Under the pieces are notes generated by a model that did no database searches, was not told the origin of the DNA, and saw only the letters and a program-made list of their open reading frames with translations. DNA of 64,000 nt from a virus (taxonomy: Duplodnaviria; Caudoviricetes): IMG/VR virus record IMGVR_UViG_3300025789_000018. One strand, given 5' to 3'. Positions within the stretch are counted from its first letter, which is position 1; each line of letters begins with the position of its first letter. Below, in pieces: positions 3,477 through 40,741 of this stretch. The position numbers and the translations under genes were made by a program.

Positions 3477-3478
3477 CT

Positions 3479-6819: not shown

Positions 6820-6820
6820 A

Positions 6821-12206: not shown

Positions 12207-12242
12207 TTTAGTTTCTCCTTAATTTCTTTTTCTATTTATGTT

Positions 12243-14139: not shown

Positions 14140-14171
14140 GTTCGTTCTCCGAGTGTGTAGGTATTTTGTTA

Positions 14172-14179
14172 TATTTATA
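14172..14179 (-). promoter_or_regulatory. T4-type late promoter TATAAATA
   Basis: Exact consensus ~35 nt upstream of ATG 14139. Confidence 0.8.
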
Positions 14180-14190
14180 AAAAAAGGATG

Positions 14191-15821: not shown

Positions 15822-17047
15822 TTCTTGACATATCCCTTGATTCTATTCATTGGTTTTCTAGGTTTAACTGGATCGTTATTCATACCAGCTTCATCACCAA
15901 CAGATAGCTTTCCACCAGGGCCAGCATTACCAGCGAAAGGAACACCACCTCCCATAAAACTTTCTTGACTATACATTCCTTTGCCTGATACAAAATACTT
16001 ACCAGTAGCAGGATCTAATCCAACAACACCGCCATAATATTTGGCCCATTTTCTTGCTGTTTCTAGATTAGAAAATAGTCTACCTTTATTTGGTTTATCG
16101 CTACCAGAATCTTCTTTAACTAGACCATCTTTGGGGCATTTCTTTTTACCATGCTTGGGGCAAGATACACCAGCAGGAGTATGCATGCATGGAGTTGTGT
16201 CTGGAAATTTATCTTGATACTCGCTACCGTATTGGTTCTCGCTACCAGCGGAACCATCAAGATCAGTGAATCCCTCTTTTACTGCCTTACACTTATCACA
16301 ACCGCAAGGCTTTTTTGGCTTTCTTTGTCCACCAAGAGTTTCTGAATTATTCGCAGAAATCCCGCCCATGCCTTCAGCCTGAGCGGGTTCATTCATTTCT
16401 TCGCCGTACATGATACTCTCAACTGCACGAACTAATCTTGCTTGACGGCGACGAGGCATTTGGTCGCCTGCTGGAGTTAAATCTGGTCTATCAGCAACCA
16501 TCTTGTCTGCGCCTAGAAGATGCATTGCCTCATTTTCTTTTGGTCTTGTGAAAGGAACAACAGGTCTGTCTGGAGTTCTTAATTGTTTCTTTCTACGCTC
16601 TTCTCCAGGTTCTTTTGTTGTTGACTTAATTGGTGATTGTCCTGGAGTATCTTTGGCATAAGCATTGACTAGATCAACAGTACCCATTCCACGTTTAATA
16701 GAAGCATCAGTAGCTTCATTAGTATTTCTTGTGGTTGTCTTTACTGGATCAACTCCTGGGGTTGTTCCTTCTTTAGATCTTTTTTCAGAATCAAGAACAT
16801 TTTTTGGAGAGTGTCCACTTAATGCAGTTTTAGTTCTTGCCTGTAGACTAGTATTTTTTTCTGGTCTTTTCTTAGGAAGTTCTGGAGTTTGTGATAGTCT
16901 ATCTTCACCTAAAGGATCGTACGATTCAGTTCTTCTATTATCAATAGTAGGATTAATGATGATGGGTTCTTTCTTTTCTCCGGTCATGGTAAGTCCGCCC
17001 TTACCACTCTGAAGAATCATTAATACCTTGTCTAGAAGTTTACCCAT
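15818..17047 (-). CDS. Low-complexity charged protein with small Cys/His clusters (probable internal head protein)
   Basis: 409 aa; CGCDKCK and CMHTPAGVSCPKHGKKKCP; VxE-type sites (AVE, VKE). Confidence 0.55.
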   Translation of the reverse strand: MGKLLDKVLMILQSGKGGLTMTGEKKEPIIINPTIDNRRTESYDPLGEDRLSQTPELPKKRPEKNTSLQARTKTALSGHSPKNVLDSEKRSKEGTTPGVDPVKTTTRNTNEATDASIKRGMGTVDLVNAYAKDTPGQSPIKSTTKEPGEERRKKQLRTPDRPVVPFTRPKENEAMHLLGADKMVADRPDLTPAGDQMPRRRQARLVRAVESIMYGEEMNEPAQAEGMGGISANNSETLGGQRKPKKPCGCDKCKAVKEGFTDLDGSAGSENQYGSEYQDKFPDTTPCMHTPAGVSCPKHGKKKCPKDGLVKEDSGSDKPNKGRLFSNLETARKWAKYYGGVVGLDPATGKYFVSGKGMYSQESFMGGGVPFAGNAGPGGKLSVGDEAGMNNDPVKPRKPMNRIKGYVKK

Positions 17048-18268: not shown

Positions 18269-18297
18269 ATTATAAACTAACTGTCAATAAAAGTCAA
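18269..18297 (-). promoter_or_regulatory. Sigma70-type promoter
   Basis: TTGACT-N17-TATAAT upstream of the glycosylase gene. Confidence 0.8.
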
Positions 18298-18841
18298 CTA
18301 TCTCGTCAGCTATACCGTATTTGACAGCTTCTTTAGCTGACAACCAACGATCTTCAGGAGGAAGAAGATATTCACGAACTTCTTTTTCTGTCAGTCCTGT
18401 ACACTTTTTATAATGTTCAAGAATTCTAACACTGACCAAATTAAATTCTTTCATCTTAGCAAACAGCTCATGCTCTTTATCCCAAGCAAATCCTGTATAC
18501 TGGTGGCTAAGAATTGATGTGTTTCTTGTAATAAATCTTTTACCCTTGGCACCAGCCATAAACGTAAGCAAACCACAACTAGCAATTAGCCCAAGACCAT
18601 ATGTATGAATAGGAACCCTAGAACCTTTGATAGTATCAATCAAAGCAAATGCACTAGGAACCTCACCGCCTGGAGAATTAATTAGTAGCTTAATTTCCTT
18701 TGGTCTTTTTGGAGCTAGATTGCGCTCAAGAATAAACTTAATTAGTTCTCCAGTAGAAGACGAGGTAAAGTCGCTATTGAACAAATAATAATTATGCCGT
18801 TCTAATGATGGAATTTCGTTGTTCTTGGTTTCTATATTCAT
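18284..18841 (-). CDS. clpP: ClpP-family serine protease
   Basis: INSPGG, GLIASCG (catalytic S), LSHQ (H), EDRWLSAKEAVKYGIADEI. Confidence 0.92.
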   Translation of the reverse strand: MNIETKNNEIPSLERHNYYLFNSDFTSSSTGELIKFILERNLAPKRPKEIKLLINSPGGEVPSAFALIDTIKGSRVPIHTYGLGLIASCGLLTFMAGAKGKRFITRNTSILSHQYTGFAWDKEHELFAKMKEFNLVSVRILEHYKKCTGLTEKEVREYLLPPEDRWLSAKEAVKYGIADEIVDFY

Positions 18842-22631: not shown

Positions 22632-25130
22632 TTAATCATTGAAAAAATCTTCTAGAGTGTTAACGTATTCAGTTTTCCACCCAATTGCATTGCTAATTAT
22701 TCGCAACGGGTCGAGAAAGGCTTTGTTAAATTGAGTTTCGTAGTCGATGTATTTGTCCAAGTCCAATGACTTTGGCAAATTATTAACCACAGATATTACG
22801 TTTTCTTTTAGAGTATTGGGCGTAGTCATGTAACAGAACTTAATCTTTTCACCTTCCTGAACGCCTGGAAATTTACTATCCAATCCCTTTTCTTTAAGGA
22901 AATGATTATAAACTAGAGCGCCTCTGACATGAATCGGAGTCGATAGTCTATAGATGGTGGATGGACTGGAAAACTTAGCAAGATTATTGCAGCCCCGAGG
23001 AAAGGCAATTTCTTCAAAGGGCAAAGTTTCAAACTCATCTTTGAATTGTTCAATAAATTCGACCAGCTGATCCTCTGTTCCTTCCATCATAATCCTCAGA
23101 GCTTGCTTAATCTTTTCTCTGCAAGAAGAAGGAGTTGATGATTTAACAGCTTCAATACCCATCATCTTTAGCTTAGGTGCAGGATACCGGATTCCTTCAC
23201 TATCCCACACGTTAAGAATATACCGCTTCTTGGCAGTCCAGATGCCCTTGTCTGCAATAGCTTCACGCTTCATAGAAAGAAACGAGTTATATGCTTTAGT
23301 ATACACAGCAAAAGCATCAAGAGTTTTTGCGATATAAGGCTCTAGCTTTTCCTTACAAATTTTATCAACAATGTTGATCTTTTGCTCAAGAGTTTTGCCA
23401 TCAGCAATTTTATCGACAAGTTTCCCCAGTTTAACGTAGTTGGAATCGGTATCTACAGCAATAACATAATCTTCATCTTTAGTGCCAAGTATCTTATTCA
23501 GATACAGGTTCATATTTGTTTCTACATATCTAATGGCAAGCTGGCCAGATAGGGTAATTGCTTCAGCAAAAGCCAAACTATACCACCGACAATAAGCATT
23601 TCCAATAGCGCCATAAAGAGAGTTGAGCTGAATTTTACGAGCCATCTGCATGTTGTTGTATCTAGCGATAGCATTCTTGAGTTCCTTTGTGGGATTCTTT
23701 TGGTATTCTCTTTCAGCCTCAAACATCTTATTCTTATATGCCTTACGGTCTTTCATCATCTTTTCGACAATCTCAGGGAAAATTCCCTTTTTAGATTTGT
23801 CCCAGAAAGAACCGTTGGCTGCAAGAGTATAGTTTTTCTCAGTCAGTTCCTTATCATATTTAGCCAAAGCATTGTTATAAAGTTGGTCATCAACACTCCA
23901 AAACCCATCAATTTTTCCAACATAGGTTTCCGGCGATAGATTATACTGAACAATCAGAGAAGGGTACAGCGAGGTAACGTCAAACGACACAACCCATTCA
24001 TGCATACCTACCTGCGGATCTTTAACGAAAGCGCCAGCATATTGATCACCTTTGCTGGTAATCTTATTCTGAGGAATGACCAGCTTTTTGTCCATCATGT
24101 AGTTATGAATAATAACGTCCCAAAGACGCACAGAAGTGAATACGTCTTCAAGGTTGATCTTAGCGTCATAAGCAATAGTAAACGCTTGATCCATAAGATT
24201 CAAACGCTCATCCAACTTATCAACAAGAATAACGTCATGAATGTTATATTCAATAAACTTCTGATAGTCATTCAAGAAGAAGTCATGCATGTTATCATAT
24301 TCAGAATAGTCTAGCTTATTCTCACCAATCTCAACGTAGGCGATGTGATCCAGCCGATACGATTCCTGCTGCGTATAGGTAAATTTCTTATACAGCTGCT
24401 GATAATCCATGATAACAATACCCATAGGATTATAGGTTTGCTGCTCCTTACCAAAGATTTCAACCTTAGATTCCAAAAGAATCTTCCAAGGCGAAAGACG
24501 TTTAGCGAAGTCGTGACCAAGAACATTCGTGATACGGTTTACCAGATATGGAATATCGAAAAACTCAATGTTCCATCCAGTAATGACATCGATGTCAAAT
24601 TCTTCCCAACAATCAAGGAATTTGAGAAGCAGCTCTTCTTCATCACGACAGTTATAATAAACTGCGCCTGTATCCTTTACATCAAATTCTCCGCATCCAA
24701 AGACACGGATTTTGTTACCCTTCTTCAAGGTAATAGCTGTAACTTCTCGGTCAGCTGCACGAATATCAGGGAACCCACCATCGGAATTAACTTCGATGTC
24801 AACAGTTGCAACGTTCATACGCTCTTTGTCGTATCGAACTTCACCAGGATATTCATCATTAATGAACGCATAGACAAACTTATCAATACCATAAATGGGA
24901 AAGTTCGACAAGTCGTCATACTTCTTTAGAAACTCTTTGCCTTCCTGAAGGTTTTCGAAATCATATTTGGCTACAGGATTTCCATCTAGAGTATGATACT
25001 CCGACTCTTCTTTGCATGGAACAAACAAATATGGCTTATACTGTACCTTATGGTGTTCGCGCTTTGCACCATTCCAACCTCTAACAAAGATGTAATTTCC
25101 GCGCTGTATAGCGGACGTGTAAAATCGCAT
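22632..25130 (-). CDS. gp43: Family B DNA polymerase (T4 gp43-like)
   Basis: Exo DIE and GWNIEFFD; Pol SFDVTSLYPS, KIQLNSLYG, AVDTDS; C-terminal clamp peptide TLEDFFND. Confidence 0.98.
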   Translation of the reverse strand: MRFYTSAIQRGNYIFVRGWNGAKREHHKVQYKPYLFVPCKEESEYHTLDGNPVAKYDFENLQEGKEFLKKYDDLSNFPIYGIDKFVYAFINDEYPGEVRYDKERMNVATVDIEVNSDGGFPDIRAADREVTAITLKKGNKIRVFGCGEFDVKDTGAVYYNCRDEEELLLKFLDCWEEFDIDVITGWNIEFFDIPYLVNRITNVLGHDFAKRLSPWKILLESKVEIFGKEQQTYNPMGIVIMDYQQLYKKFTYTQQESYRLDHIAYVEIGENKLDYSEYDNMHDFFLNDYQKFIEYNIHDVILVDKLDERLNLMDQAFTIAYDAKINLEDVFTSVRLWDVIIHNYMMDKKLVIPQNKITSKGDQYAGAFVKDPQVGMHEWVVSFDVTSLYPSLIVQYNLSPETYVGKIDGFWSVDDQLYNNALAKYDKELTEKNYTLAANGSFWDKSKKGIFPEIVEKMMKDRKAYKNKMFEAEREYQKNPTKELKNAIARYNNMQMARKIQLNSLYGAIGNAYCRWYSLAFAEAITLSGQLAIRYVETNMNLYLNKILGTKDEDYVIAVDTDSNYVKLGKLVDKIADGKTLEQKINIVDKICKEKLEPYIAKTLDAFAVYTKAYNSFLSMKREAIADKGIWTAKKRYILNVWDSEGIRYPAPKLKMMGIEAVKSSTPSSCREKIKQALRIMMEGTEDQLVEFIEQFKDEFETLPFEEIAFPRGCNNLAKFSSPSTIYRLSTPIHVRGALVYNHFLKEKGLDSKFPGVQEGEKIKFCYMTTPNTLKENVISVVNNLPKSLDLDKYIDYETQFNKAFLDPLRIISNAIGWKTEYVNTLEDFFND

Positions 25131-27778: not shown

Positions 27779-28435
27779 TTAAGCCTTGCGAATTTCCGTC
27801 GCAATCCAATACTGACGAGCATCATTATCAAAAAATGCCAGTCCCTTAGAAGAAACCGTAACGGCATAGTCAAGAGGCTGAACCTTCAGATTGTCAGCCT
27901 TAAACACAACACGAAACTCAGAGTCAGTTTCCCCAAGATCGATCTTAAAGGTATCGCTGCCGCCCCGCTTGGCCACATCTTCTGCGCTAACAGTAACTCG
28001 ACCATCTTCTCCCATGATTACAATTTCAGGAACCTGAAGAATAGAAGCAGCACGATGAATCTTAGTAATTGCTTCAGACGAGAGACGGAAGGCAGAATCC
28101 TGCGAAGGAAGCACAAGATCTTTCTTAGGAGGAACTACAATAGTGTCCTCTGCAGCATAGAAAATTGTAGTAACGTTCTTGTTCTTGTCCTTAATGATAA
28201 CTCGATCATTCTTGAAATCGCAATCAGGCTCATCCATGATGCTAAGTGCACCAAGGAATTTCGAAAGATTGGCAAGAGCCAGATTGTTGGGGAAATTATC
28301 CTCAACACTAGTCTTGGCTACGATAGTCTTTGACGTCGAAACAGTCTTGATAACATTACCCGCCTGAATAGCAATAGACGGGTTAATGCTAGAAAACTCC
28401 TTAAGAACACTTACAGTTGCATCACTTAGTTTCAT
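27779..28435 (-). CDS. gp45: Sliding clamp (T4 gp45-like)
   Basis: MKLSDATVSVLKEFSSINPSI...LSKFLGAL...; synteny 45-44-62-regA. Confidence 0.95.
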   Translation of the reverse strand: MKLSDATVSVLKEFSSINPSIAIQAGNVIKTVSTSKTIVAKTSVEDNFPNNLALANLSKFLGALSIMDEPDCDFKNDRVIIKDKNKNVTTIFYAAEDTIVVPPKKDLVLPSQDSAFRLSSEAITKIHRAASILQVPEIVIMGEDGRVTVSAEDVAKRGGSDTFKIDLGETDSEFRVVFKADNLKVQPLDYAVTVSSKGLAFFDNDARQYWIATEIRKA

Positions 28436-28462: not shown

Positions 28463-28492
28463 ATTATATAACATATTGACTGCGAAGTCAAT
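28463..28492 (-). promoter_or_regulatory. Sigma70-type promoter of gp45 operon with palindromic -35 region
   Basis: TTGACT(28486-91)-N17-TATAAT(28463-68); perfect 7-bp inverted repeat ATTGACT-gcga-AGTCAAT at 28475-28492. Confidence 0.8.
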
Positions 28493-29454
28493 TACTTTTT
28501 GCTTCCCAGCTTGGTGGGATCAACAGTAGCGGCTGCGCCTACCTGAGCAAGATCGTTTAACGAACCAGCAAAGATATACGAACCAACGTGCTGCAGAGCA
28601 ATCCAAGGAGCAAGCCAAACCTTCAGACCAGCTTCACGAGCCCACTGACAGAACATATAATCTTCTGACAGATAACGGTTCGAGTATTCATGACCAAAAG
28701 CCGAATGCTTGGTGTCAGCAATAAAGTCCATAACTTCCTGTGGAGTAGCCTTTGGATTCTTCTTGAAGAACTCAGCAATTTCCTTGTTGATTCGAGCAGT
28801 CTTGTTGTCGATAAGAGCATCAAACATGCACATAATCTCACGCGAACCGTCGAATGCAGCAGTACGAACGTGGTCTGGTCTGTACATAAGTTCAGCGTAA
28901 GTAGCCGACATCTTATCCAGCGCCGAACGCTTGATCATCATAAAGCCAGTACCAGCTTCAAGAACTTCTGCAGGCTCAGAGATACGGATTTCATTAGCAC
29001 CATTAGCAGGATTAAACACATAGTCACCGACGAACTTTTCAAGAACGTTAGGGTCTTCATCTGCAATACCCTTGTCTACTGCAGTCTTGATCTTTTCCCA
29101 AGCAATGCACTTCTTAGGATAAGGGGCGCAAAGAATGTCATATGGTGAATCATCACCCTGAAGAGCAAGCATAGCAAATACATCCTGAGCATTGAAACCA
29201 ATGTCAGAGTCAATGAATAGCATGTGAGTGCAGTCCGAACGAAGAAATTCGTCTACGCAATAGTTACGAGCGCGAGTAATCAGCGACTCGTTGAAAAGAT
29301 AATAGAATCGTACTTCGATTCCATAGTGAACAGCCATCGCCGATAGGTCATTCGATGAACGAGCAAACATACCTGCGCACATACCACCATACATGGGGGT
29401 AGCAACAAATAGCTTACGCTTACGCATTTCTTCAATAGGAACATTAATATCCAT
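28492..29454 (-). CDS. GT-A fold glycosyltransferase-like protein
   Basis: LFVATPMYGG, ESLITRARN, HMLFIDSDIGF (DxD), GTGFMMIKR, SEDYMFC, HVGSY. Confidence 0.8.
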   Translation of the reverse strand: MDINVPIEEMRKRKLFVATPMYGGMCAGMFARSSNDLSAMAVHYGIEVRFYYLFNESLITRARNYCVDEFLRSDCTHMLFIDSDIGFNAQDVFAMLALQGDDSPYDILCAPYPKKCIAWEKIKTAVDKGIADEDPNVLEKFVGDYVFNPANGANEIRISEPAEVLEAGTGFMMIKRSALDKMSATYAELMYRPDHVRTAAFDGSREIMCMFDALIDNKTARINKEIAEFFKKNPKATPQEVMDFIADTKHSAFGHEYSNRYLSEDYMFCQWAREAGLKVWLAPWIALQHVGSYIFAGSLNDLAQVGAAATVDPTKLGSKK

Positions 29455-29457
29455 AAT

Positions 29458-30093
29458 TTACTTTACCTTTACGTCGAGAGACATATTCATTGCAGCGCCG
29501 ACGGTAGCATATGCAATAGTGTTTGATGAGAGATCAGCAGTCATAGTTGCTGTTGCCCACTTGTTGTTAAAATCAACATTGCGCATCTTAGTCGAAGCAA
29601 GACCTGATGCACTGGTATAAGTTGTGACATCGAAGTTAGCGCCAAGGAAGATAACTTCCCAGTTCTTTTCCTGAAGAACCTTGACCTTATTCTTAATCTT
29701 AGCCTGAGTGTATTCCTGCGACTGGTTTTCTTCACCGTCAGTTAGAATGACAACAACAGTACGCTTTGCATTGCGTTCTAGAGCGCGATCCATTACATGA
29801 GCAGCAGCATCATAAAGAGGAGTGCCGCCAGAAGGTTGCAGAACATCATAACGAAGTGGTTCAAAGTAAGCAATACTTTGACTTTCCGTAATAGTTTCAA
29901 GTCTAGTTGTAGAACCCTGAAGAATATAGGCGGAATCAAATGCAACAATAGTTACTTCGCCTTCAATCTTTTCCTTCTGAAGTCCCTTGATGTAATCATT
30001 TAGTGAGGTGATAGCAGTAGTCCAGCGTTCACCATTCATAGAACCTGAGCGGTCCAGAGCAACAAACACGGCAAAATCATTTTTGCTTGTCAT
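29458..30093 (-). CDS. von Willebrand factor A (vWA) domain protein
   Basis: MIDAS LDRSGSM, GGTPLYDA, ILTDGEEN, IFLGAN. Confidence 0.9.
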   Translation of the reverse strand: MTSKNDFAVFVALDRSGSMNGERWTTAITSLNDYIKGLQKEKIEGEVTIVAFDSAYILQGSTTRLETITESQSIAYFEPLRYDVLQPSGGTPLYDAAAHVMDRALERNAKRTVVVILTDGEENQSQEYTQAKIKNKVKVLQEKNWEVIFLGANFDVTTYTSASGLASTKMRNVDFNNKWATATMTADLSSNTIAYATVGAAMNMSLDVKVK

Positions 30094-30094
30094 A

Positions 30095-30469
30095 TTATAC
30101 TTCCTTCTTGTTTTCTAGATCATGTACATGTAATGCGATGATGGCATAATGAATAACCTTCATCAAATCTTTGCGCCAATCTTCTACTCCACCTTTCTGG
30201 CCATAGCGACCAGAATACTTGTCGACGTTACCTAAGCAAAAGCCTAGACCCCGACCTCGGTCTATAGCGATTTCAGTTGATTGGATATTGCCTTGGGCAT
30301 AGTGTTCGCCATATGTCTTATCAATGTAAGTGGCGATTTCTTGAAGGTATTTACCTTCGTTGTACTTATAGTTGATTTTTGGGTAGTTTTGTGTGTGCAC
30401 AGTCTTTACATAGAATTTTGCACTTGGTTCAATTATAGTTTCTTGTATGTCTTGTATGCGTGGTGTCAT
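30095..30469 (-). CDS. DUF3310-like protein
   Basis: YIDKTYGEHY...GFCLGNVDKYSGRYGQKG...KDLMKVIHYA. Confidence 0.75.
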   Translation of the reverse strand: MTPRIQDIQETIIEPSAKFYVKTVHTQNYPKINYKYNEGKYLQEIATYIDKTYGEHYAQGNIQSTEIAIDRGRGLGFCLGNVDKYSGRYGQKGGVEDWRKDLMKVIHYAIIALHVHDLENKKEV

Positions 30470-30478
30470 ATTGTAACC

Positions 30479-31027
30479 TCAATTATTAGCATCATGTATA
30501 ACAGTATTTATATAACTCACAATGGTATTTTGCTCATCATACGTATTATTTTCTAGGTGTTCTATGATAAACAGCAGATTAAGATTACTCAAAATATTAG
30601 CAACCTTAGTTTCTCTACCTCGCAACCAGGTTTCATCTTGGTTGCTGCCTCGACTTTCATATCTCAATTCTCTTTCTTTCTTTTGAGTAGAAAGATAAAT
30701 TATAGAAAGATCGAAGTTATCGTTACAATGCTCTAAGAAAGAGTTGTTGAATAGCCTATCGCCTTCAAACAAAACAATAGAATTGTCAGGAATAGAAGAT
30801 AGAAATTTTATAGCTTCTGGCTGAACCGCCATACTCATTCTATCAGTTCCAGCAAACACCTGATCATCTTCATATTTACCTAGAACATATAGATTATCTT
30901 TCTGATGGTAAGGAACCAATTTGAAATCATCTTTGAACTCATCAATTTTATATTGATCAATTATCTTTCTCATAAGAGTAGATTTGCCAGCTCCAGGCTC
31001 TCCACCAATTGCAATAATCTTAACCAT
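30479..31027 (-). CDS. P-loop kinase (type associated with DNA-hypermodification clusters)
   Basis: Walker A GGEPGAGKST, FAGTDRMS, Walker B LFEGDRL, lid R..RGS.Q. Confidence 0.8.
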   Translation of the reverse strand: MVKIIAIGGEPGAGKSTLMRKIIDQYKIDEFKDDFKLVPYHQKDNLYVLGKYEDDQVFAGTDRMSMAVQPEAIKFLSSIPDNSIVLFEGDRLFNNSFLEHCNDNFDLSIIYLSTQKKERELRYESRGSNQDETWLRGRETKVANILSNLNLLFIIEHLENNTYDEQNTIVSYINTVIHDANN

Positions 31028-32024
31028 AGAACATCTCCAATCCTTGTTTTACTTCTCCTTCATCAGAGAACATCCAATTCAGCTTTTCTATTTTACCTGT
31101 ATTAAGAAAAGAAGTAAACTTATTTTTATCAATCTTATTAGTAAGCAGTCTGTTATCTAGGGACTCTTGGCGAGCTTGCCAAAGAACATTCCACTCAATA
31201 CCAGGCCAGTTATCTTCTTCTAGTTGAAATATTTCTTCAGCTTGCCTATCCAAATAATATCCCAAATACCTGCCATGTTTTTCTCTAAAGATTTTCTTAA
31301 AAGAACAAAGGCAAGTTTCCATAGTATAGTAGTTAGCTTCTGATGCTAGATGCGGAAATCTAGTTTTGATTTCAACAAGAATATCTTTTGCTTCTGCTTC
31401 TAAATATGAATATTCTTTTTGTGTCAACTTAGTATCAATCCAATCTGATCGATCAAGCGCCAGCAAAAAGCCATTACGGTGAGAACGACTGCCAGAATAG
31501 TCAGAAAGCATAAGGCTGGTTGGTTCAAGAATAAGACCTGCAGTGCTATGTAAAGACTGCATGTAAAACCAAGTAGTGTATCTTCCAAACTTATGAAACT
31601 CTTTGTTTACAACATTCCAAACATTGTCAAAATTCTGAGATTCATTATCCCCATAATAATTCTCTAGAACTTCTTTTTGAGAAGAGTTTCCTACAAACTT
31701 TTGATAGGACTCAAACATAGAAGGCAAATGCCCCTTGTTGTATTTGGTATCAGTTTGATAACGGAGTCTTTTATAATTTGCAGTGTTCCATTGACTGATT
31801 CTGTCTACAGTTGCAAGCTCGTAGTCGGGAAATTCATTCTTAAGGACCCACGAAGTAGGAAGATAATATGTGTTGGCATATAGCCAGCAAAGCCATACTC
31901 TCTCTTCGCTATTATGCTCATACCTGTTATTAAGATAATTCATCATCCAAATGGCAGGATCGCAATCTTTATACTCTAAAGACCACGCATACCATCGGAT
32001 AAATCTTTCTTTATTATCAAGCAT
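31020..32024 (-). CDS. Amino acid:DNA transferase-like protein (aGPT-Pplase2/AADT, HhH-glycosylase-like fold)
   Basis: KFGRYTTWFYMQ hairpin motif, GSRSHRNG, METCLCSFKK, GRYLGYY; coupled to the P-loop kinase. Confidence 0.72.
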   Translation of the reverse strand: MLDNKERFIRWYAWSLEYKDCDPAIWMMNYLNNRYEHNSEERVWLCWLYANTYYLPTSWVLKNEFPDYELATVDRISQWNTANYKRLRYQTDTKYNKGHLPSMFESYQKFVGNSSQKEVLENYYGDNESQNFDNVWNVVNKEFHKFGRYTTWFYMQSLHSTAGLILEPTSLMLSDYSGSRSHRNGFLLALDRSDWIDTKLTQKEYSYLEAEAKDILVEIKTRFPHLASEANYYTMETCLCSFKKIFREKHGRYLGYYLDRQAEEIFQLEEDNWPGIEWNVLWQARQESLDNRLLTNKIDKNKFTSFLNTGKIEKLNWMFSDEGEVKQGLEMFYG

Positions 32025-32571
32025 TCATGTAGTCTGCAAAAAGGTCATTTTTGATTGCTTCCTGCGCATAGATAATCAGATTTTTGCGTTCTTCATTGGA
32101 GAGCTTATCAACCAAAATAGTAGCATTGACATATTCTCCATCCTTACCGCCCGACGCTTCTTTCCACTTGAACTTGTACCCAAAATGCTTTTGCATTTCG
32201 TTATGAAATAGATTTTCCATGAAAGTGGTATTTTCCTCGCTGCAATAAAGAACACGAACAAAACAACTATCGGGATTTAGATTTTGGCGAATATAAGTGC
32301 CTGCGCCATGAGAATTTGAGTTAGTTTTTGAATTTGCAGTCTGGCGAATCTTATATGTTCTATCATGAATATTAGAACTCTTGCCAATATATCCAATATG
32401 AGGGCTTACAAGATCATCGCCGATAAGCTCAATATCTTCACCATCAGCCACCTGATAAATCCCAGTAGAACCGTACTGAGAATCTAGACTGCGCTGAACG
32501 TTGTTGGAAGAAGGCAATTCAGAAATTTTTCTCCACTCAGAAATATGCGTAATTTTACTCTTATCAATCAT
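32017..32571 (-). CDS. GIY-YIG-like nuclease
   Basis: GIYQV...GYIGKS...DR...HG...FMENLF; no NUMOD3 tail. Confidence 0.6.
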   Translation of the reverse strand: MIDKSKITHISEWRKISELPSSNNVQRSLDSQYGSTGIYQVADGEDIELIGDDLVSPHIGYIGKSSNIHDRTYKIRQTANSKTNSNSHGAGTYIRQNLNPDSCFVRVLYCSEENTTFMENLFHNEMQKHFGYKFKWKEASGGKDGEYVNATILVDKLSNEERKNLIIYAQEAIKNDLFADYMNA

Positions 32572-32607
32572 TTAATAATTCTCCATAATGTAGGTAGTAG
32601 TAACAGC

Positions 32608-32636
32608 AGCTTATATCATTTTTCACTGCAAGTCAA
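32608..32636 (-). promoter_or_regulatory. Possible internal sigma70 promoter upstream of GIY-YIG/AADT/kinase genes
   Basis: TTGACT(32631-36)-N17-TAAGCT(32608-13). Confidence 0.5.
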
Positions 32637-33135
32637 TAGCTGATACAACGCCGCCCTTTCTTCCACTATTTACTGCAGAAGAGATGACATCATCATAATC
32701 ATAGATACCATCAGTGTATCGGTCTCCCCCTATTTTAAAAATACTTAAAGAAGAGCCAGACTTCTGTTTTCCCCAAAACTTGAATCCACACTTTTTGTAG
32801 AATGGAACAGCATCAGGTTCAGCAGAAACTCTAAAATATACAGCATCCATTTTCATAGCTTTCAGTAAAGCGTAATCAGTTAGCACTCTACCCACACCCT
32901 TTCCTCTGTGAGAATGGAATGTGTGAAGTAATTGAAGATTTGCCACCTTTGGATCACGTTTGCTGACTGTAACAATTATTGCTCCAAGCAACTCGTCGCC
33001 ATCCCATGCTCCGGTGCAATGTGCCCACTGATCTTGCATGTTGGCTTTAGCTAAGAATGTCTTAGCAAACGAATCTTCTTTTTTGTTAGTGATGGCTGCG
33101 GTAAATTGTTCTTTGCTACAATTAAGTAACTTCAT
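32623..33135 (-). CDS. GNAT acetyltransferase
   Basis: LQLLHTFHSHRGKGVGRVL motif A, AVPFYKKCGF motif B; start reassigned to ATG 33135 (MKLLNC), overlapping the amidoligase stop. Confidence 0.85.
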   Translation of the reverse strand: MKLLNCSKEQFTAAITNKKEDSFAKTFLAKANMQDQWAHCTGAWDGDELLGAIIVTVSKRDPKVANLQLLHTFHSHRGKGVGRVLTDYALLKAMKMDAVYFRVSAEPDAVPFYKKCGFKFWGKQKSGSSLSIFKIGGDRYTDGIYDYDDVISSAVNSGRKGGVVSAIDLQ

Positions 33136-33994
33136 GGAACTCGCGCTTTTTTTCTCCACGCTCTTTATCATATTTGGTATCAACCCATCCTGAATATTCA
33201 TTAGCGTTCCAAATAAATGGAGGAAACTTCAGTTCATATTTATCAAGAATATCTTCCACACTATCACCACCATTCAGAGCAGCATCAATGAAAGCCTCAG
33301 CAAATATGAACTGAGATTCAAGTTCTTCTCTTTTAGTAGTTGATCGGAAACAGCGGAACTCAATAGTTCCTGTGTGCTTCATGCAATATGTGTTGATTGC
33401 ATATCGGAAAGGCCGACCCATAGAAATACCATCTTTACCTGCAGCATGCAATTTGATAAAATGGTTAAAGTCTGTGGCCATGTTAATGATGTTGTCACAC
33501 ATATATTCAGGCATAACACGACCGCCATCATATTTTAGATATGTTTTGGCATTCTTGAATCCCTTCATATCTACACGATCTTCAAACTGATAACAAGCAG
33601 CAATGGTAGCTTCTTGATTCTTCTTGATATAAGAAACCAGTCTCTTTAGTGCATCAAGATCATCTTTAAGGCCAGGAACAAATACATGAAGATGGCCATG
33701 ATTAACACAAGAAGATGATGGAGTATTACCGTGATCTTCAAATATCTTTTTAATTTCTAGAATACGATCAACCTGTTCTTGCCAAGTTTTAGTAGGCTTG
33801 GTGTTTATTTCTCCACCCATAGGAGGTTCTAGACCTAGCGGATCACACGCAATATACTTGTAATCGCCGTGGATATTCACAATATCAGTTTCAGCGTATT
33901 CCCACTTTCCTAAGTTTTCTGGAATACTAATAGAGCGATCAATATCACCCCATTCAATTTCATATCCCCAAGTATAGTCTTTAGTGTTATACAT
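33122..33994 (-). CDS. Amidoligase (COOH-NH2 ligase, glutamine-synthetase-like fold)
   Basis: WGYEIEW, GGEINTKP, NHGHLHV, RYAIN, GTIEFRCF; start at ATG 33994. Confidence 0.82.
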   Translation of the reverse strand: MYNTKDYTWGYEIEWGDIDRSISIPENLGKWEYAETDIVNIHGDYKYIACDPLGLEPPMGGEINTKPTKTWQEQVDRILEIKKIFEDHGNTPSSSCVNHGHLHVFVPGLKDDLDALKRLVSYIKKNQEATIAACYQFEDRVDMKGFKNAKTYLKYDGGRVMPEYMCDNIINMATDFNHFIKLHAAGKDGISMGRPFRYAINTYCMKHTGTIEFRCFRSTTKREELESQFIFAEAFIDAALNGGDSVEDILDKYELKFPPFIWNANEYSGWVDTKYDKERGEKKREFHEVT

Positions 33995-34679
33995 GTTGTA
34001 AATCTTTCTTTCGTACAATATCAACTTCGTGTCGTTCTATCAAAAAACTAACATCGTTCATAAAGTATGTAACATAAGGTTTTGCTTCAGCAATTCCAGA
34101 AACTCCGGCACGATGTAAAATGTCTTTAGTCGATGCAAAAACAACACTCTTAGGCTTATATGAATAATACAAAGGACGCTTACCGTTTCTAAAAAAAGAT
34201 ACTTGTTTATTATACAAAGACAATACAGCACCAGAAATAGAAGCATCTTCCCAAATAAAAGGACTTTTACCTTCAGCCAAACTTTTTAGTAAGAGTTCAG
34301 AATCATTTTTAGTATTACACTTATATCCATAAAGCTCTTCCCATCGCTCAGGAAGTTCTTGAGATATGACACCATTATGGACTAACGAAATCTGAGAAGT
34401 TTCTAGAGGCTGATTATACAACAAGTCAGAAGTGGAATATCTGCAATGTCCAACAAAGCATATATTTCCATCTTCATTTACTAGTTGCTCAAACTCATAA
34501 GTTTCAGCAAATTCATCAGCAGGAAGAGCAGTTCGCTCTGTCCAAATTTGTCCATCTTTGATATATGAAAGACCTGTAGCGTGTTTACCTCTGATCCGAG
34601 ATTCAATAAAAATATTTCTGATAGTAGTAAAATCGGCTTCAGTTGGATCAGAAATATAAGCGCCGATAATACCACACAT
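33987..34679 (-). CDS. Class II (Ntn) glutamine amidotransferase, stand-alone
   Basis: N-terminal MCGIIG, RGKHATG, GHCRYST, NQP, VHNGVI, NDSE, RNGKRPL. Confidence 0.9.
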   Translation of the reverse strand: MCGIIGAYISDPTEADFTTIRNIFIESRIRGKHATGLSYIKDGQIWTERTALPADEFAETYEFEQLVNEDGNICFVGHCRYSTSDLLYNQPLETSQISLVHNGVISQELPERWEELYGYKCNTKNDSELLLKSLAEGKSPFIWEDASISGAVLSLYNKQVSFFRNGKRPLYYSYKPKSVVFASTKDILHRAGVSGIAEAKPYVTYFMNDVSFLIERHEVDIVRKKDLQHV

Positions 34680-36016
34680 TAAAAGAAACTTTCTAGAGAA
34701 CCTGCTGTACTCTTGTCATAAGGATCAGTCATACCGTGCGCAGCAAGGTAGTCAAACCATTCTTGCTCGTCCCACATACCAGGACTCACACCATTCCAAA
34801 GTTTACGCTGAAGGGGATGGTCTTTATTAAGTCTGCGGGAATCAACAAACTTCTTACGAAGCTGTTCATATTCCCAACTTCCAGGTTCAAGCATATCTTC
34901 ACGGAAGTATGCAACAATAGTCATACGATCAGGATTCTCGCCCCGAATTTCTGCATTACCATGGATAGCAGTATGGTTTGCCACAAGGAGAAGATCACCA
35001 GGCTCTAGTTTTACTGCTGCACGATATTCAGGGAGGATAAGTTCCGCGCCTTCCCAACCAGCACCAAGACCGGATAGGTTCGAGAATCCTGACGCAAGAT
35101 CGCCCGCATCGAGGTGCGCGGCGGTGCGGAAATTGTGATTCACTGTAAGAGTAGTGAATACAGTATCAGAAATCAAAAAGTTAGGATCAAGTTTATCTGC
35201 AGCTGCTCTTTGGTTGCCCCAACGCTGCGGAAGAAGTTGGCTGAAACAATGATTCAGCTTCTTCAAATACGGAAAGCTCTTTTCGAAATCCTGCGGATTC
35301 TTTTCAGTAAAAGCAGTTGCTCGCTTATAAGGAATTCTAGGATACCGAGAATAATATCCAGCAACGCCAGACATAACAGTTTGTGCGTAGTTAGTTTCCG
35401 AAATATAATTGTCAAGAATATACTTGGCTTCCGCTCGGCGAGTGTCTTCATGTTTATTGCTTAGACCCTCAACCCAACGATCAAACCATCCAAAATAAGG
35501 ATCATGATCTTTACAGACTTCACTGCGCAACCACACGCAACCACGAGTCTGATCAGGCTCTTTCTTTTGATGTTTAATCTTGATAGATTCTAGACTTTCA
35601 TCATCAAACACAGAAACGTTAGTTCTGGTGAGATATTCAAGAACATCAATCTGATAATTAGAAACCCACTCACGACCACCTCGACCAGAAGCAGAAAGCA
35701 TTTCACCGCGAGGGCCAGCAGCCATACCGCGATTCTGCGATTCAGAGGCAGCACCAATCAGACCTTCATAACAAAGGTAAAGTTCTTCTTGAGTAAAAAC
35801 GTTCTTACGAAATTTCAGGATAATATTATCTTCAGTCATGCTTCCATCAAGAGAAGGACCATAAACGTCAGTATCTTCTGTCAATAAGACATCATAATGG
35901 CTCTCATCAACAAAGCTGCCGATAAGATGATCGCTAGGAATCTTTTGATCAATATAAATTGTTTTTACTGACAAAGAAGTGCAAGGACGGTCGCAGTCTT
36001 TCACGCAGTCTTTCAT
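34679..36016 (-). CDS. TET/JBP-family 2OG-Fe(II) dioxygenase (5-methylpyrimidine oxygenase)
   Basis: SGVAGYYSRYPRIPYKRATAF, TVFTTLTVNHNFRTAAHLDAGD (HxD), AIHGN (distal H), RMTIVAYFRE (2OG-binding R); start at ATG 36016 behind GGAG. Confidence 0.88.
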   Translation of the reverse strand: MKDCVKDCDRPCTSLSVKTIYIDQKIPSDHLIGSFVDESHYDVLLTEDTDVYGPSLDGSMTEDNIILKFRKNVFTQEELYLCYEGLIGAASESQNRGMAAGPRGEMLSASGRGGREWVSNYQIDVLEYLTRTNVSVFDDESLESIKIKHQKKEPDQTRGCVWLRSEVCKDHDPYFGWFDRWVEGLSNKHEDTRRAEAKYILDNYISETNYAQTVMSGVAGYYSRYPRIPYKRATAFTEKNPQDFEKSFPYLKKLNHCFSQLLPQRWGNQRAAADKLDPNFLISDTVFTTLTVNHNFRTAAHLDAGDLASGFSNLSGLGAGWEGAELILPEYRAAVKLEPGDLLLVANHTAIHGNAEIRGENPDRMTIVAYFREDMLEPGSWEYEQLRKKFVDSRRLNKDHPLQRKLWNGVSPGMWDEQEWFDYLAAHGMTDPYDKSTAGSLESFF

Positions 36017-36041
36017 AATAATCTCCAAATAACGAGCAACA

Positions 36042-36070
36042 AGTATACTATAAAGTTACAAACTTGTCAA
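36042..36070 (-). promoter_or_regulatory. Strong sigma70-type promoter heading the DNA-modification operon
   Basis: TTGACA(36065-70)-N17-TATACT(36042-47). Confidence 0.8.
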
Positions 36071-36946: not shown

Positions 36947-37148
36947 TTTTAATCTCCGTAGCCCAATTGACTGTTACCCAGTCTTCAATACAGTTTTCTT
37001 CTGTAATTAATTCATGGCCTTCGCCATACTTTTTAACCATTCGTTCTTTCCAATACGGCCAGTATTCAAATAAAATCTCAGCTTCATCATAAACAAATTC
37101 TACAGGATTACCGTCTTCATTCGGCTCAACATAAGAATATTTTGTCAT
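36939..37148 (-). CDS. Small hypothetical protein
   Basis: 69 aa, overlaps both neighbours. Confidence 0.7.
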   Translation of the reverse strand: MTKYSYVEPNEDGNPVEFVYDEAEILFEYWPYWKERMVKKYGEGHELITEENCIEDWVTVNWATEIKND

Positions 37149-38863
37149 ACTGACATCCTCGAAAAATTCTTGACCTTATCGAACTTAAGAATTCGGCCAA
37201 ATTTATCACTAATGTTTTCAGTCTTATGCGAAATAATAAAGATATTGGAGTCGCCCAGAAGAGTCTTAAGAATCTTCATGAACTCTTCCGAACCCGTTGC
37301 ATCAAGCGCCCCATCGAAGATTTCGTCCATGACCAATAGATTTGTGCTATTGCTATTTCTGAGCTTAGAGATTGTACGCCAACATAGCATAAGAGCAAGA
37401 TCAATGCGGCATTTTTCGCCTTCGCTAAAGGACTCGTAGGAGAAGTCGTCTCTATGTCTTGACCTAATTTTTTCATTGAAGTTTTCATCCAGTTCGAATT
37501 GGACAAAGAAGTCCATTGCGGTCAAGTATTTATTAATCAATTTATTCATGATAGGAACGTATTGCTTAATAATTTTTGCTTTGATACCACTATCCTTTAG
37601 TAGTACAGAAGCTAGATCGAGAGTTGACTTTTGTTTTATAAGGGTTTCAGTTTCTGCTGTGTATTCAACCAATTGGTTTTGAAGTTCTACGAGTTTAGCA
37701 GTTTCTTCTTTAATGGTATCATCATCTCCCTGAACCTTGGTCACTTCAGATTCTTCAAGCTGAATTTGCTTTTGGATAAAATCAACTTGATTATTGTTTG
37801 TATTAATAGTCGACCAAAGATCAATTATTTTATCACGAACTTCTTTGATATCAGCCAACCTCAGAGAAACCGCATTGTATTCCTCTTCGAGTTTAGTTAA
37901 AGCATCACACAGTTCGTGTTCTTTTCTTTCGCGATCGGAAACGCTATCCGCTTTGAACGTGTCATCAATACTTTGCTTACAAGTAGGACAGCTATCATTC
38001 TCTCGGAAAAACGCGATTTCCTTTTGCAACTTAGATTGGCGAGTTTCCATTTGCTTTTCTAGTTGAAGCAATGAAGTCTGTTTCTTAGAAAGAGCCGCCT
38101 CATCATTTACCGAAAGCTCAAGTTCTTCGACTTGTGTATTCAGCAAACGATTTTGCTCAACCAGATCAGAAATAGAGTCTCTCATATTCTGAATGAGAGT
38201 TTTCTTGCCTTCAATTATTTTATCACTACTTTGCTTAAGACTCAAGATATGCTTATTTTGCATATCAATCTTTTCCTGAGCTAAGGTAGCTTTATACTTC
38301 ACATCAATGATATTGCCTTTATTTTCAGATAGTTTATCTTTCAGCAAAGAATACATCGTCGAGAAAATCTGAATGTCTAGAAGATTTTCATTAAATTCAC
38401 GACGAGCGTGTGCAGGCATTTGCATGAACGGAACATAAGTCGAAGAACCCAAAGTAACAATTTGAGTGAACGACTTATGATTCATCCGCAGAATATGTTT
38501 CTCAAGATATTCCTGATAGTCTCTAGTTGCAGCATCCTGATTTACCAAGGTGCCGTTTTGAATGATTTCAAAAATATTAGGTCGCATACCACGACGAACT
38601 AGATACTCATTAGAATTAATACTGAATTCAATCTCACAAAGAAGATTCTTGGCATTGATGCTGTTAATAAGCTGAGGCTTATTAATTTTACGGAACGGTT
38701 TTCCATAAAGAGCAAAAGAGATAGCGTCGATGAATGTGCTTTTACCTGACCCGTTATGACCGACAATCAAAGTCATAGGGTGCGTATCGATATCAATTTC
38801 TGTAAATGTATTTCCGGTGGAGAGTAAATTCATCCACCGAACTTTTTTAAATGTAATTGCCAT
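37145..38863 (-). CDS. gp46: Recombination endonuclease subunit, Rad50/SbcC-like (T4 gp46)
   Basis: GHNGSGKST, CPTC zinc hook, FSEGEK signature, MDEIFD, ISH. Confidence 0.97.
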   Translation of the reverse strand: MAITFKKVRWMNLLSTGNTFTEIDIDTHPMTLIVGHNGSGKSTFIDAISFALYGKPFRKINKPQLINSINAKNLLCEIEFSINSNEYLVRRGMRPNIFEIIQNGTLVNQDAATRDYQEYLEKHILRMNHKSFTQIVTLGSSTYVPFMQMPAHARREFNENLLDIQIFSTMYSLLKDKLSENKGNIIDVKYKATLAQEKIDMQNKHILSLKQSSDKIIEGKKTLIQNMRDSISDLVEQNRLLNTQVEELELSVNDEAALSKKQTSLLQLEKQMETRQSKLQKEIAFFRENDSCPTCKQSIDDTFKADSVSDRERKEHELCDALTKLEEEYNAVSLRLADIKEVRDKIIDLWSTINTNNNQVDFIQKQIQLEESEVTKVQGDDDTIKEETAKLVELQNQLVEYTAETETLIKQKSTLDLASVLLKDSGIKAKIIKQYVPIMNKLINKYLTAMDFFVQFELDENFNEKIRSRHRDDFSYESFSEGEKCRIDLALMLCWRTISKLRNSNSTNLLVMDEIFDGALDATGSEEFMKILKTLLGDSNIFIISHKTENISDKFGRILKFDKVKNFSRMSV

Positions 38864-39945: not shown

Positions 39946-40146
39946 TCAATATTTGATTCTGCGCTTCATTTGTTTTAGTTCTAACTCTTTGTCAAAACTA
40001 TCAACATTTCGCTTGCAGAAATCAGCGATGTTTTCAAGCGAAGTTCTATAATTAAATCTAATGTGTTCCGGCGCGCTTTTGTCGTTCAGCTTACTGATCA
40101 TATCAGCAACTGGCGCTGGAATAATAATATCTTTAGCCATCTTCAT
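39946..40146 (-). CDS. Small hypothetical protein
   Basis: 66 aa between gp55 and gp47. Confidence 0.7.
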   Translation of the reverse strand: MKMAKDIIIPAPVADMISKLNDKSAPEHIRFNYRTSLENIADFCKRNVDSFDKELELKQMKRRIKY

Positions 40147-40741
40147 TATCCTCTACAAATACATCTAACCCTTTTTTCTTTGGGGTTTTTTTGTTTTTGA
40201 GCTTTGTTTCATAATCAGAAACAAATTTGCCCATTCGTTCAGTATGATCTACTGTATGAGAAGATGACCCTTTTATAGCAGTTTTGCTTGTTTCACTATT
40301 AACAAACTCGGTCAGTTCATCCATGATATCCATATTCTCGAATATCTTGTATTTGACGTAAGTCTGTCTGTGCTCTTTAGCGATCCTATGCAAAAAGGCA
40401 TTATATATGATCATAGTGAAATAGGCAAATGGATTATTGCTTTTGTCAGGGTTAAAATTGTGCATGTATGCGATGCAATTTTCTATCCCGTCTCCAATCA
40501 TCTCCTCTTTATATGTATATGATATAAAGTTATGTTTGTATGATAATTTTGTGGCAATCTTTAAAATACAATCGCCAACATATTCTGGGATTCTGGGAAG
40601 CGGCTTATTGTTTTCTTTTGCATCACGATACTCATTGATATAATGAATCATATATCCGTAGAGCTTCTTGTTATCTACGTAATGCGGCTGACTTTTCTTT
40701 AGTGCTTTTTTTGACACCTTAATCACTTTTTCACTTGACAT
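40133..40741 (-). CDS. gp55: Late-transcription sigma factor (T4 gp55-like)
   Basis: HYVDNKKL, PRIPEYVGDCILKIA, NFISYTYKEEMIGDGIENC, NPFAYFT; C-terminal GLDVFVE. Confidence 0.96.
   Translation of the reverse strand: MSSEKVIKVSKKALKKSQPHYVDNKKLYGYMIHYINEYRDAKENNKPLPRIPEYVGDCILKIATKLSYKHNFISYTYKEEMIGDGIENCIAYMHNFNPDKSNNPFAYFTMIIYNAFLHRIAKEHRQTYVKYKIFENMDIMDELTEFVNSETSKTAIKGSSSHTVDHTERMGKFVSDYETKLKNKKTPKKKGLDVFVEDNEDG

Follow-up and report, generated by a model that had tools for sequence, protein, structure and literature searches.

A putative post-replicative thymine hypermodification cassette with clamp-type tails in the gp46–gp45 interval of a T4-like freshwater phage

Why would a T4-like phage keep a TET/JBP dioxygenase, a P-loop kinase and an amino acid:DNA transferase together between gp46 and gp45, and which base of its DNA would these enzymes act on? 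The question is raised by a 64,000-nucleotide (nt) stretch of a T4-like freshwater phage (IMG/VR record IMGVR_UViG_3300025789_000018), called the window here, to which all coordinates refer. The window holds the T4-like genes gp47, gp46, gp45, gp44/62, RegA, gp43, UvsX, a gp41-like helicase, gp55, primase, UvsW, UvsY and gp23. In its gp46–gp45 interval, six genes encode 5mYOX (the TET/JBP dioxygenase), a glutamine amidotransferase (GATase), an amidoligase-like protein, a GNAT acetyltransferase, an amino acid:DNA transferase (AADT) and the P-loop kinase. We consider it likely, judging from sequence, that this cassette serves post-replicative hypermodification of thymine, with a tailored adduct and with recruitment of enzymes by the sliding clamp gp45. 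The cassette genes, their promoter and the genes flanking the unit are listed below (lengths in amino acids, aa; Pfam matches with E-values).

37145–38863, minus strand: gp46, the upstream flank, with gp47
36042..36070, minus strand: sigma70-type early promoter TTGACA-N17-TATACT, 11 of 12 consensus positions, overlapping the last codons of the peptide deformylase (PDF) gene
34679..36016, minus strand: 5mYOX, TET/JBP 2-oxoglutarate-Fe(II) dioxygenase, 445 aa; Tet_JBP 2.7e-22; tail SLESFF
33987..34679, minus strand: stand-alone class II (Ntn) GATase, 230 aa; GATase_6 3.3e-13 (50.2 bits against a cut-off of 27), also GATase_7; begins MCGIIG
33122..33994, minus strand: Amidoligase_2-like protein (glutamine-synthetase-fold carboxylate-amine ligase), 290 aa; sub-threshold Amidoligase_2; start at 33994 from alignment and gene call
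32623..33135, minus strand: GNAT acetyltransferase, 170 aa; Acetyltransf_10 3.9e-13; ends IDLQ; upstream start at 33171 or 33201 possible
31020..32024, minus strand: AADT (aGPT-Pplase2, PF18724), 334 aa; ADDT 8.7e-20; tail GLEMFYG
30479..31027, minus strand: P-loop kinase (Ploopntkinase3), 182 aa; 4.3e-12 (46.4 bits against a cut-off of 27); Walker A GGEPGAGKST
27779..28435, minus strand: gp45 sliding clamp; gp45-slide_C 2.1e-13; the downstream flank

An earlier sequence-only reading had described ten tightly coupled genes behind a TTGACA-N17-TATACT promoter between gp46 and gp45, and the coordinates of the open reading frames (ORFs) and the promoter match bear this out. All ten ORFs lie on the minus strand where that reading had placed them. 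Neighboring genes overlap by 1–14 nt or are separated by 1–9 nt, except for a 51-nt gap preceding the gene of a GIY-YIG-like endonuclease. A second promoter at 28491–28463, also with 11 of 12 consensus positions, begins the gp45 unit, so the boundaries of the ten-gene unit are clean. Promoter-like sites are not enriched as a class in the window (29 found, 24.8 expected). The gene names given by that reading stand above the curated Pfam cut-offs for seven of the ten proteins, including the TET/JBP, aGPT-Pplase2/ADDT and GATase families. The amidoligase (15.7 bits against a cut-off of 22 for Amidoligase_2, PF12224), the GIY-YIG protein and the GT-A-like protein fall below threshold, and their evidence is weaker. 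Its term ‘ten-gene operon’ holds for transcription but includes too much for a pathway: the DUF3310 and GT-A-like genes belong to the backbone of the lineage, the vWA gene is sporadic and the GIY-YIG gene encodes a locus-associated endonuclease.

This division is based on a comparison of related loci. We mapped the ten proteins and the flanking genes onto 44 IMG/VR loci with 5mYOX homologues (43–75% identity), nearly all of which occupy the same gp46–gp45 interval. The genes of 5mYOX, GATase, amidoligase, GNAT, AADT and kinase follow each other in the same order in about 15–20 of the 44, and these six appear to be the cassette proper. In several freshwater metagenomes, a total of 24 contigs carry an identical 5mYOX, and the gene order on them is the same. 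The phage is contained in 20 freshwater metagenome runs, all as assembled contigs, and 18 of these runs cover at least half of the stretch. A megablast search of the phage collection gave no nucleotide match to the window.

5mYOX matches Tet_JBP at 79.2 bits (cut-off 34.9). The catalytic set HxD...H...R is intact, and H301, D303, H352 and R364 are invariant in 18 homologues. The AlphaFold2 (AF2) model (pLDDT 75) shows the TET fold, and the best Foldseek matches are CcTet, NgTET1 and TET2 (E 1e-9 to 1e-5). The ATG at 36016 has GGAG at proper spacing, and the TTG at 36028 was rejected as the start. Ahead of the catalytic core, the protein carries an N-terminal extension of about 205 aa. This extension belongs to no Pfam family, and its Atlas neighbors score just 0.79, all of them with Tet_JBP. 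Foldseek aligns most of 5mYOX to TETs, at high root-mean-square deviation. We looked for a separate domain or a fused ParB in these 205 residues, and neither found support from Pfam, Atlas or Foldseek.

The closest cultured catalytic core is that of gp18 of the Pelagibacter podophage HTVC112P (44% identity), and a ParB-like gene lies immediately before gp18. On this ground, 5mYOX is placed with the ParB-associated clade of thymine dioxygenases. The phage 5mYOXs of this clade act after replication and oxidize thymine to 5-hydroxymethyluracil (5hmU), and the clade is ‘consistently linked’ with GATases, P-loop kinases and AADTs (O'Toole et al., PMC13229309). We predict that the 5mYOX of the window is a thymine-to-5hmU oxidase acting on DNA.

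The GATase keeps the N-terminal Cys nucleophile directly after Met, as do nine of ten homologues, and is proposed to be an ammonia donor. We also notice a motif, [E/K/I]DLQ, at or near the C-terminus of the GATase (33987–34679) and of all ten homologues checked, and the GNAT (32623–33135) likewise ends in IDLQ. The motif may serve for docking to some other partner. The amidoligase assignment is supported indirectly. All 12 homologues match Amidoligase_2 (best 3.5e-4), and 96 of 100 Atlas neighbors are Amidoligase_2 proteins with scores of 0.96–0.98; sequence searches of the PDB with the protein or its profile returned nothing useful.

The AADT matches ADDT at 71.9 bits (cut-off 26.2). Its closest relatives in cultured phages are ViI-like, for example Cba120 orf248, with about 27–29% identity across about 81% of the length. 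The kinase gene overlaps the AADT gene by 8 nt, and the same pairing occurs in relatives and in cluster B mycobacteriophages. From its Pfam family and this adjacency, the kinase is predicted to be a 5hmU DNA kinase (5-HMUDK).

Which base the cassette acts on depends on how thymine enters the DNA, and one gene outside the interval bears on this.

5086–5772, minus strand: ThyX; Thy1 3.5e-43; makes ordinary dTMP

As ThyX supplies ordinary dTMP, thymine would go into DNA unmodified. No ThyA-family ORF was found in the six-frame translation of the window. Pfam scans of the window ORFs with 150 aa or more, reaching to about 43 kb and ending before the structural-gene region (43.7–64 kb), found no C5-methylase. 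Profiles of the relatives' ParB-like proteins detected no ParB-like ORF in six frames. A 147.9-kb relative with direct terminal repeats, estimated to be complete, carries the same six-gene module and has no match to PF00303, PF00145 or PF02195. PF00145, the C5-methylase family, also has no match in four relatives, this genome among them. With no ThyA-family hydroxymethylase, C5-methylase or ParB found by these searches in the window or the complete relative, thymine is the likely substrate, and we regard it as by far the most likely one on these gene contents. The sequence-only reading had pointed to ThyX in a window that has neither a dUMP hydroxymethylase nor a C5 methyltransferase. The Thy1 match and the six-frame search confirm the former; for the latter, the scanned ORFs and the four relatives agree.

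We propose a pathway of six steps. The first three are drawn from family membership and published enzymology on relatives, and the last three are inferred. ThyX would supply normal dTTP, so that DNA is synthesized with thymine. The 445-aa 5mYOX would then oxidize thymine in DNA to 5hmU, and the P-loop kinase would phosphorylate the hydroxymethyl group, giving 5-phosphoryloxymethyluracil. In published work, a P-loop kinase phosphorylates 5hmU in DNA, and aGPT-Pplase2-family AADTs put glycine, serine or putrescine in place of the phosphate (PMC8989533). In the fourth step, the AADT of the window would swap the phosphate for an amino acid or an amine. Using ATP, the amidoligase would activate a free carboxylate, which would be amidated with ammonia that the stand-alone GATase releases from glutamine. 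The GNAT would acylate the free amine, as the GNAT of phage PaMx11 acetylates an unmasked amine; for 5-HMUDK, AADT and acetyltransferase, the reactions have been worked out in M6, ViI and PaMx11 (PMC8989533). In the sixth step, the gp45 sliding clamp probably recruits 5mYOX and AADT to new DNA through their C-terminal tails, and it may stand in for ParB, the partner required by related 5mYOXs when the DNA is double-stranded. The logic put forward by the sequence-only reading (5hmU made on DNA, phosphorylation, amino acid attachment, then amidation and acetylation) is supported at the level of sequence by the TET fold, the HxD...H...R set, the adjacency of AADT and kinase, and the MCG start of the GATase. 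Its statement that this enzyme set has no defined product still holds as far as the literature could be searched.

The sixth step arises from the C-termini of the cassette enzymes, for which two replication and transcription proteins of the same phage serve as references.

22632..25130, minus strand: gp43 DNA polymerase; C-terminus TLEDFFND, the reference clamp-binding tail
40133..40741, minus strand: gp55 late sigma factor; phrog_234 2.1e-57; tail GLDVFVEDNEDG, the second reference clamp-binding tail

In T4, gp43, gp55 and gp33 attach to gp45 by their C-termini, which can be exchanged for one another (PMC2988020). The 5mYOX tail SLESFF and the AADT tail GLEMFYG are of the same L-[D/E]-x-F-[F/Y] type as the tails of the phage's own gp43 and gp55. 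A search of the 85 window proteins for L[DE]xF[FYMLV] gives seven occurrences. Five of these occurrences fall in the last nine residues, where 0.26 would be expected (P about 9e-6), and the five carriers are gp43, gp55, 5mYOX, AADT and a SLOG protein. Across 18 5mYOX homologues, residues L441, F444 and F445 never change, and the Leu, Glu and Phe codons vary synonymously. This synonymous turnover under invariant residues excludes a ribosome-binding-site artefact; L-E-x-F-F as a by-product of the downstream gene's Shine-Dalgarno sequence was rejected, as the window codons also contain no GGAG.

Beyond 5mYOX, clamp-type tails are found on 13 of 19 AADT homologues, on three of three TET-associated glycosyltransferases (TAGTs) and on several GNATs. 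In six phages the tail co-varies with that of gp43, and in Cr30 both members of the pair deviate to an -LF ending. The tail is absent from the 5mYOXs of HTVC112P and S-CBWM1, two phages checked outside the T4-like group. We predicted the complex of the gp45 trimer with 5mYOX residues 376–445, which scored 0.44 against 0.05 for the best control, on a scale where scores up to 0.60 count as weak; 51 of 78 solved complexes and 2 of 108 mismatches attained the mark that this complex reached. The sequence evidence for the tails is good and suggests that the tailed enzymes may bind gp45; the predicted complex gives this weak support and is not taken as proof of binding. To our knowledge, and in the literature searched, the known ligands of gp45 include no enzyme that modifies DNA.

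ParB itself is a DNA-sliding clamp. Since the window has no ParB, the idea that gp45 takes its place is attractive. We speculate that in T4-like phages, 5mYOX, AADT, TAGTs and some GNATs alternate on loaded gp45 clamps behind the fork, like tools on a toolbelt, with the clamp replacing ParB, and that the product may be an uncatalogued, amidated and acylated thymine amino-acid adduct. This combined model is tentative, and we hold it to be possible rather than probable. A need for gp45 could explain why some ParB-less enzymes of clade C1 are inactive in Escherichia coli.

We also observed that the SLOG-family protein at 6427–6984 on the minus strand (YAcAr, 6.2e-10) has a clamp-type tail, TLDSFYE, at its C-terminus, and this protein may be a further enzyme that gp45 brings to DNA.

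Several points weigh against the reading of the locus as a clamp-recruited thymine cassette. Some ParB-less 5mYOXs of clade C1 were inactive on both thymine and 5-methylcytosine (5mC) in E. coli (PMC13229309), and the 5mYOX of the window is ParB-less too. No characterized enzyme is more than about 28% identical to the AADT, a distance too great for inferring the donor. The kinase shows no tblastn similarity (E ≤ 1e-3) to the 5-HMUDKs of ViI, M6, SP10 and PhiW-14. GATase and amidoligase carry no clamp-type tail. The prediction of the gp45 complex is weak: its runs agree in at least 45% of contacts, the partner has a pLDDT of at least 47, and the fold of the partner fragment is uncertain. Finally, the 20 metagenome runs are assemblies only, and modification cannot be read from them.

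The four remaining genes of the transcription unit lie among and behind the cassette genes.

32017..32571, minus strand: GIY-YIG-like endonuclease, 184 aa; called from its motifs, with a weak T5orf172 match (E 0.0086, below cut-off)
30095..30469, minus strand: DUF3310 protein; Pfam 1.3e-7; co-transcribed
29458..30093, minus strand: vWA protein, 211 aa; VWA 1.7e-10; metal-ion-dependent adhesion site (MIDAS) apparently complete (DRSGS at the start)
28492..29454, minus strand: GT-A-like protein, 320 aa; DxD within an invariant FIDSDIGF; homologues 61–79% identical

The GT-A-like protein matches Anp1 and GT21 below threshold (E about 0.02), and its Atlas neighbors carry Anp1 or Glycos_transf_2 (GT2) at 0.97; PDB sequence searches with the protein or its profile gave nothing useful. 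The GT-A-like gene and DUF3310 occur alongside any variant of the cassette. Both also occur in phages that have no 5mYOX, namely Sinorhizobium phages phiM12, phiN3 and phiM7 and an Ochrobactrum phage, and are therefore taken as lineage backbone, not as cassette-specific genes. The vWA gene is present in one of the 44 relatives and appears to be a sporadic insertion. By gene content, DUF3310, the vWA gene and the GT-A-like gene look like co-transcribed neighbors rather than demonstrable members of the pathway. On the outer sides of the unit, a 69-aa ORF, a MazG/PRA-PH-like gene and the PDF gene lie between gp46 and the cassette promoter, all on the minus strand, and gp45 is followed by gp44, gp62 and RegA.

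The cassette itself is variable at this position. In the sister phages L004, L008 and L036, a TAGT gene (PF20691) stands directly after 5mYOX, with or without a nucleotidyltransferase. Cr30, L009, L044 and L047 have 5mYOX plus only a distant AADT and kinase. About seven relatives encode proteins of 435–495 aa at the GNAT/AADT junction, with a GIY-YIG-like or HNH-like N-terminus plus a ParB/Srx-like domain. A five-sequence profile of the GIY-YIG type matches the ParB-type N-domain of Noc (E 0.0056) and includes a DGNHT..A motif. The two HNH-type proteins were called ParB-like by eye from a DGNTRT-type motif. We read the GNAT/AADT junction as an insertion point for nuclease-type genes. At two other loci (L029, 14546–17889; L025, 17028–20599), we observed that the cassette is followed by a 704–772-aa protein and a MoxR/CbbQ-type AAA+ ATPase (AAA_5 4.2e-19). 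ATPases of this type are the usual partners of vWA proteins, and of such a pair the window has just the 211-aa vWA gene.

In the GIY-YIG-like protein of the window, as throughout 14 homologues, the GIY, YIG, Arg and Glu motifs are kept, and the spacer is unusually long. Its AF2 model (pLDDT 71) has weak fold matches (E ≥ 3e-3), all to GIY-YIG domains. We considered whether the gene is a remnant of the relatives' GIY-YIG–ParB fusion genes, and no similarity was detected. In a separate observation, another lineage (L055–L059) has, in this order, a GIY-YIG-like gene and genes for a 445-aa 5mYOX (tail TLGDLF), a 269-aa protein (tail SLADLF) and a DruA-like protein. CsgF/CsgG-like genes occur in three of these five loci, and this 5mYOX neighborhood is undescribed.

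We weighed the reading of a thymine cassette against other explanations of the same genes. It is very improbable that the dioxygenase acts on 5mC and that the cassette hypermodifies cytosine, as in phage clusters with C5-methyltransferase and TET genes. Phage TETs of clades A and B do oxidize 5mC, and P-loop kinases occur in some of their contigs (PMC8256090); 5mYOX97 and 5mYOX176 can also oxidize 5mC in vitro (PMC13229309). However, the scanned window ORFs and the four relatives, the complete genome included, have no C5-methylase that would provide 5mC, the nearest cultured core belongs to a ParB-associated pair of the thymine type, and all enzymology of AADT and kinase to date is on 5hmU. 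A different order of events, which we regard as unlikely, is that GATase, amidoligase and GNAT build a free nucleophile (an amino-acid amide, a gamma-glutamyl amine or an N-acyl diamine) that the AADT installs in one step. This would fit the GATase and amidoligase, which do not have the tail seen on the DNA-acting enzymes, and the different conserved tail of the GATases, ending in DLQ, which recurs as IDLQ on the window GNAT. It would also fit the AADT of PhiW-14, which takes putrescine as a pre-made amine, and the literature says explicitly that what amidoligase and GATase do in such clusters is unknown (PMC8989533). On the other side, the GNATs of several relatives have clamp-type tails (GLEDFF, GLEGFL, GLTSFFN), and PaMx11 gp48, the sole characterized GNAT of this pathway type, acts on a DNA-borne amine.

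The extent of modification can be questioned as well. It seems doubtful to us that the marks made by the cassette are sparse and sequence-specific and have a regulatory, epigenetic-like role, instead of being a bulk modification against restriction. The characterized phage thymine dioxygenases prefer YTY and NTR contexts and convert part of the thymine in E. coli, and such a reading is raised by O'Toole et al. themselves (PMC13229309). Tethering to the replication clamp would instead favor action across the genome, and sister phages have swapped in TAGT bulky-adduct cassettes at the same locus, which is typical of arms-race loci. The last question concerns the GIY-YIG protein. In another phage lineage with a different gene order, 445-aa 5mYOX genes are immediately preceded by homologues with 59–60% identity, and these homologues are more conserved than the accompanying 5mYOX (54% identity). 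Together with the catalytic motifs kept in the 14 homologues and the GIY-YIG-like or HNH-like N-terminal domains of the ParB-like proteins at the relatives' GNAT/AADT junction, this would suit a working member of the system, either a DenA-like nuclease against unmodified host or competitor DNA or an accessory of 5mYOX that replaces ParB. We are inclined to doubt this role. None of the 44 IMG/VR relatives, about 20 of them with the full module, has the gene, and the closest homologue (83%) stands alone at the same locus of a relative that has no cassette, in the order gp46–PDF–GIY-YIG–DUF3310–GT-like–gp45. The window also contains further homing endonucleases. Most likely, the gene encodes a mobile endonuclease tied to a swap-prone locus and not a core enzyme of the pathway.

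The kind of pathway that we propose for the thymine cassette is already published (PMC8989533, PMC13229309). The nearest counterparts are the clade C1 clusters of ParB-dependent thymine dioxygenases (O'Toole et al., PNAS 2026, PMC13229309). These share with the window the TET/JBP core, the lack of a neighboring C5-methylase and the link to GATase, P-loop kinase and AADT genes, and about seven related loci have ParB/Srx-like genes within the cassette. In contrast, the window and the complete relative have no ParB-like gene. The 5mYOX of the window, known here from its sequence, is 445 aa long, whereas characterized enzymes have about 280–300 aa; it adds the N-terminal extension of about 205 aa and the polymerase-type tail. 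The metavirome contigs of Lee et al. (NAR 2021/22, PMC8989533) with TET_JBP, 5-HMUDK and aGPT-Pplase2 follow the same logic with the same gene families. In those contigs TET_JBP takes the place of dUMP hydroxymethylase, the amidoligase and glutamine amidotransferase genes have an unknown role, and no product or enzyme data are given for the TET_JBP gene set (PMC8989533).

The characterized systems share parts of the scheme. In Pseudomonas phage PaMx11, gp46–gp49 are a glycine:DNA transferase, a flavin adenine dinucleotide (FAD) lyase, an acetyltransferase and a 5-hydroxymethyldeoxyuridine (5hmdU) DNA kinase, which together yield 5-AcNmdU (PMC8989533). The sequence of kinase, AADT and GNAT on a 5hmU-derived base would be common to both, whereas PaMx11 takes its 5hmdU from the nucleotide pool and has the FAD lyase and no GATase or amidoligase. 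The PaMx11 AADT shows no tblastn similarity to that of the window at E ≤ 1e-3. The window AADT is closest to the ViI-like serine:DNA transferases (ViI gp247 type), whereas ViI uses pre-replicative 5hmdU and a pyridoxal-phosphate decarboxylase. Unlike the classical systems of 5-HMUDK and AADT, the window has no dUMP hydroxymethylase, and 5mYOX would be its replacement. Base J (JBP1/2 plus a glucosyltransferase) and the phage TAGT systems (PF20691) are likewise primed by oxidation of thymine on DNA. The window instead has an amino-acid branch and no TAGT, and its GT-A-like gene is of a different, backbone family. The tails resemble those of the T4 gp45 ligands gp43, gp55 and gp33 (PMC2988020) in being hydrophobic-acidic and extreme C-terminal, and are nearly identical to the tails of the phage's own gp43 and gp55; binding is predicted in the present case.

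The new elements are a T4-like subclade of 5mYOX in its long form, with no ParB in the window, the clamp-type tails, and the polymorphism of the cassette at a single locus. The locus is a well-resolved example of a published pathway type in a recurrent freshwater T4-like phage. The product of the set of 5mYOX, kinase, AADT, GATase, amidoligase and GNAT would matter. The literature lists the steps of amidoligase and GATase among the open ones. If true, the clamp tails would answer how a post-replicative modifier reaches newly made DNA in full, and would account for the inactivity of some clade C1 5mYOXs on their own. Such clamp coupling parallels the coupling of DNMT1 to PCNA in eukaryotes. The gp46–gp45 interval is a swap site with amino-acid, glycosyl and empty alleles, and with nuclease and nuclease–ParB fusion genes at the junctions. 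It offers a natural system for studying the movement of modification cassettes.

Other parts of the window deserve a brief description. Four large ORFs at 11268–17047 on the minus strand (312, 567, 395 and 409 aa) have no match in Pfam (E ≤ 1e-3) or PHROG (E ≤ 1e-5), and a ferritin-like gene (14191–14646) and a ClpP-like gene (18284–18841) adjoin them. The ORF at 58600–59154 is the only sizeable one on the plus strand in the structural region. The large subunit of a class I ribonucleotide reductase (RNR) is split in two at 1843–4960 on the minus strand.

3479–4960, minus strand: N-part of the RNR large subunit; ATP-cone, all-alpha domain and first half of the barrel
2843–3448, minus strand: homing-endonuclease-like ORF between the RNR parts, 201 aa; phrog_314 1.3e-9
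1843–2853, minus strand: C-part of the RNR large subunit; second half of the barrel
561–1142, minus strand: homing-endonuclease-family ORF; phrog_655 3.8e-49

The two ORFs of homing-endonuclease families (561–1142 and 2843–3448) indicate a genome rich in such elements. The split RNR resembles the genes-in-pieces nrdA reported for Aeromonas phage Aeh1.

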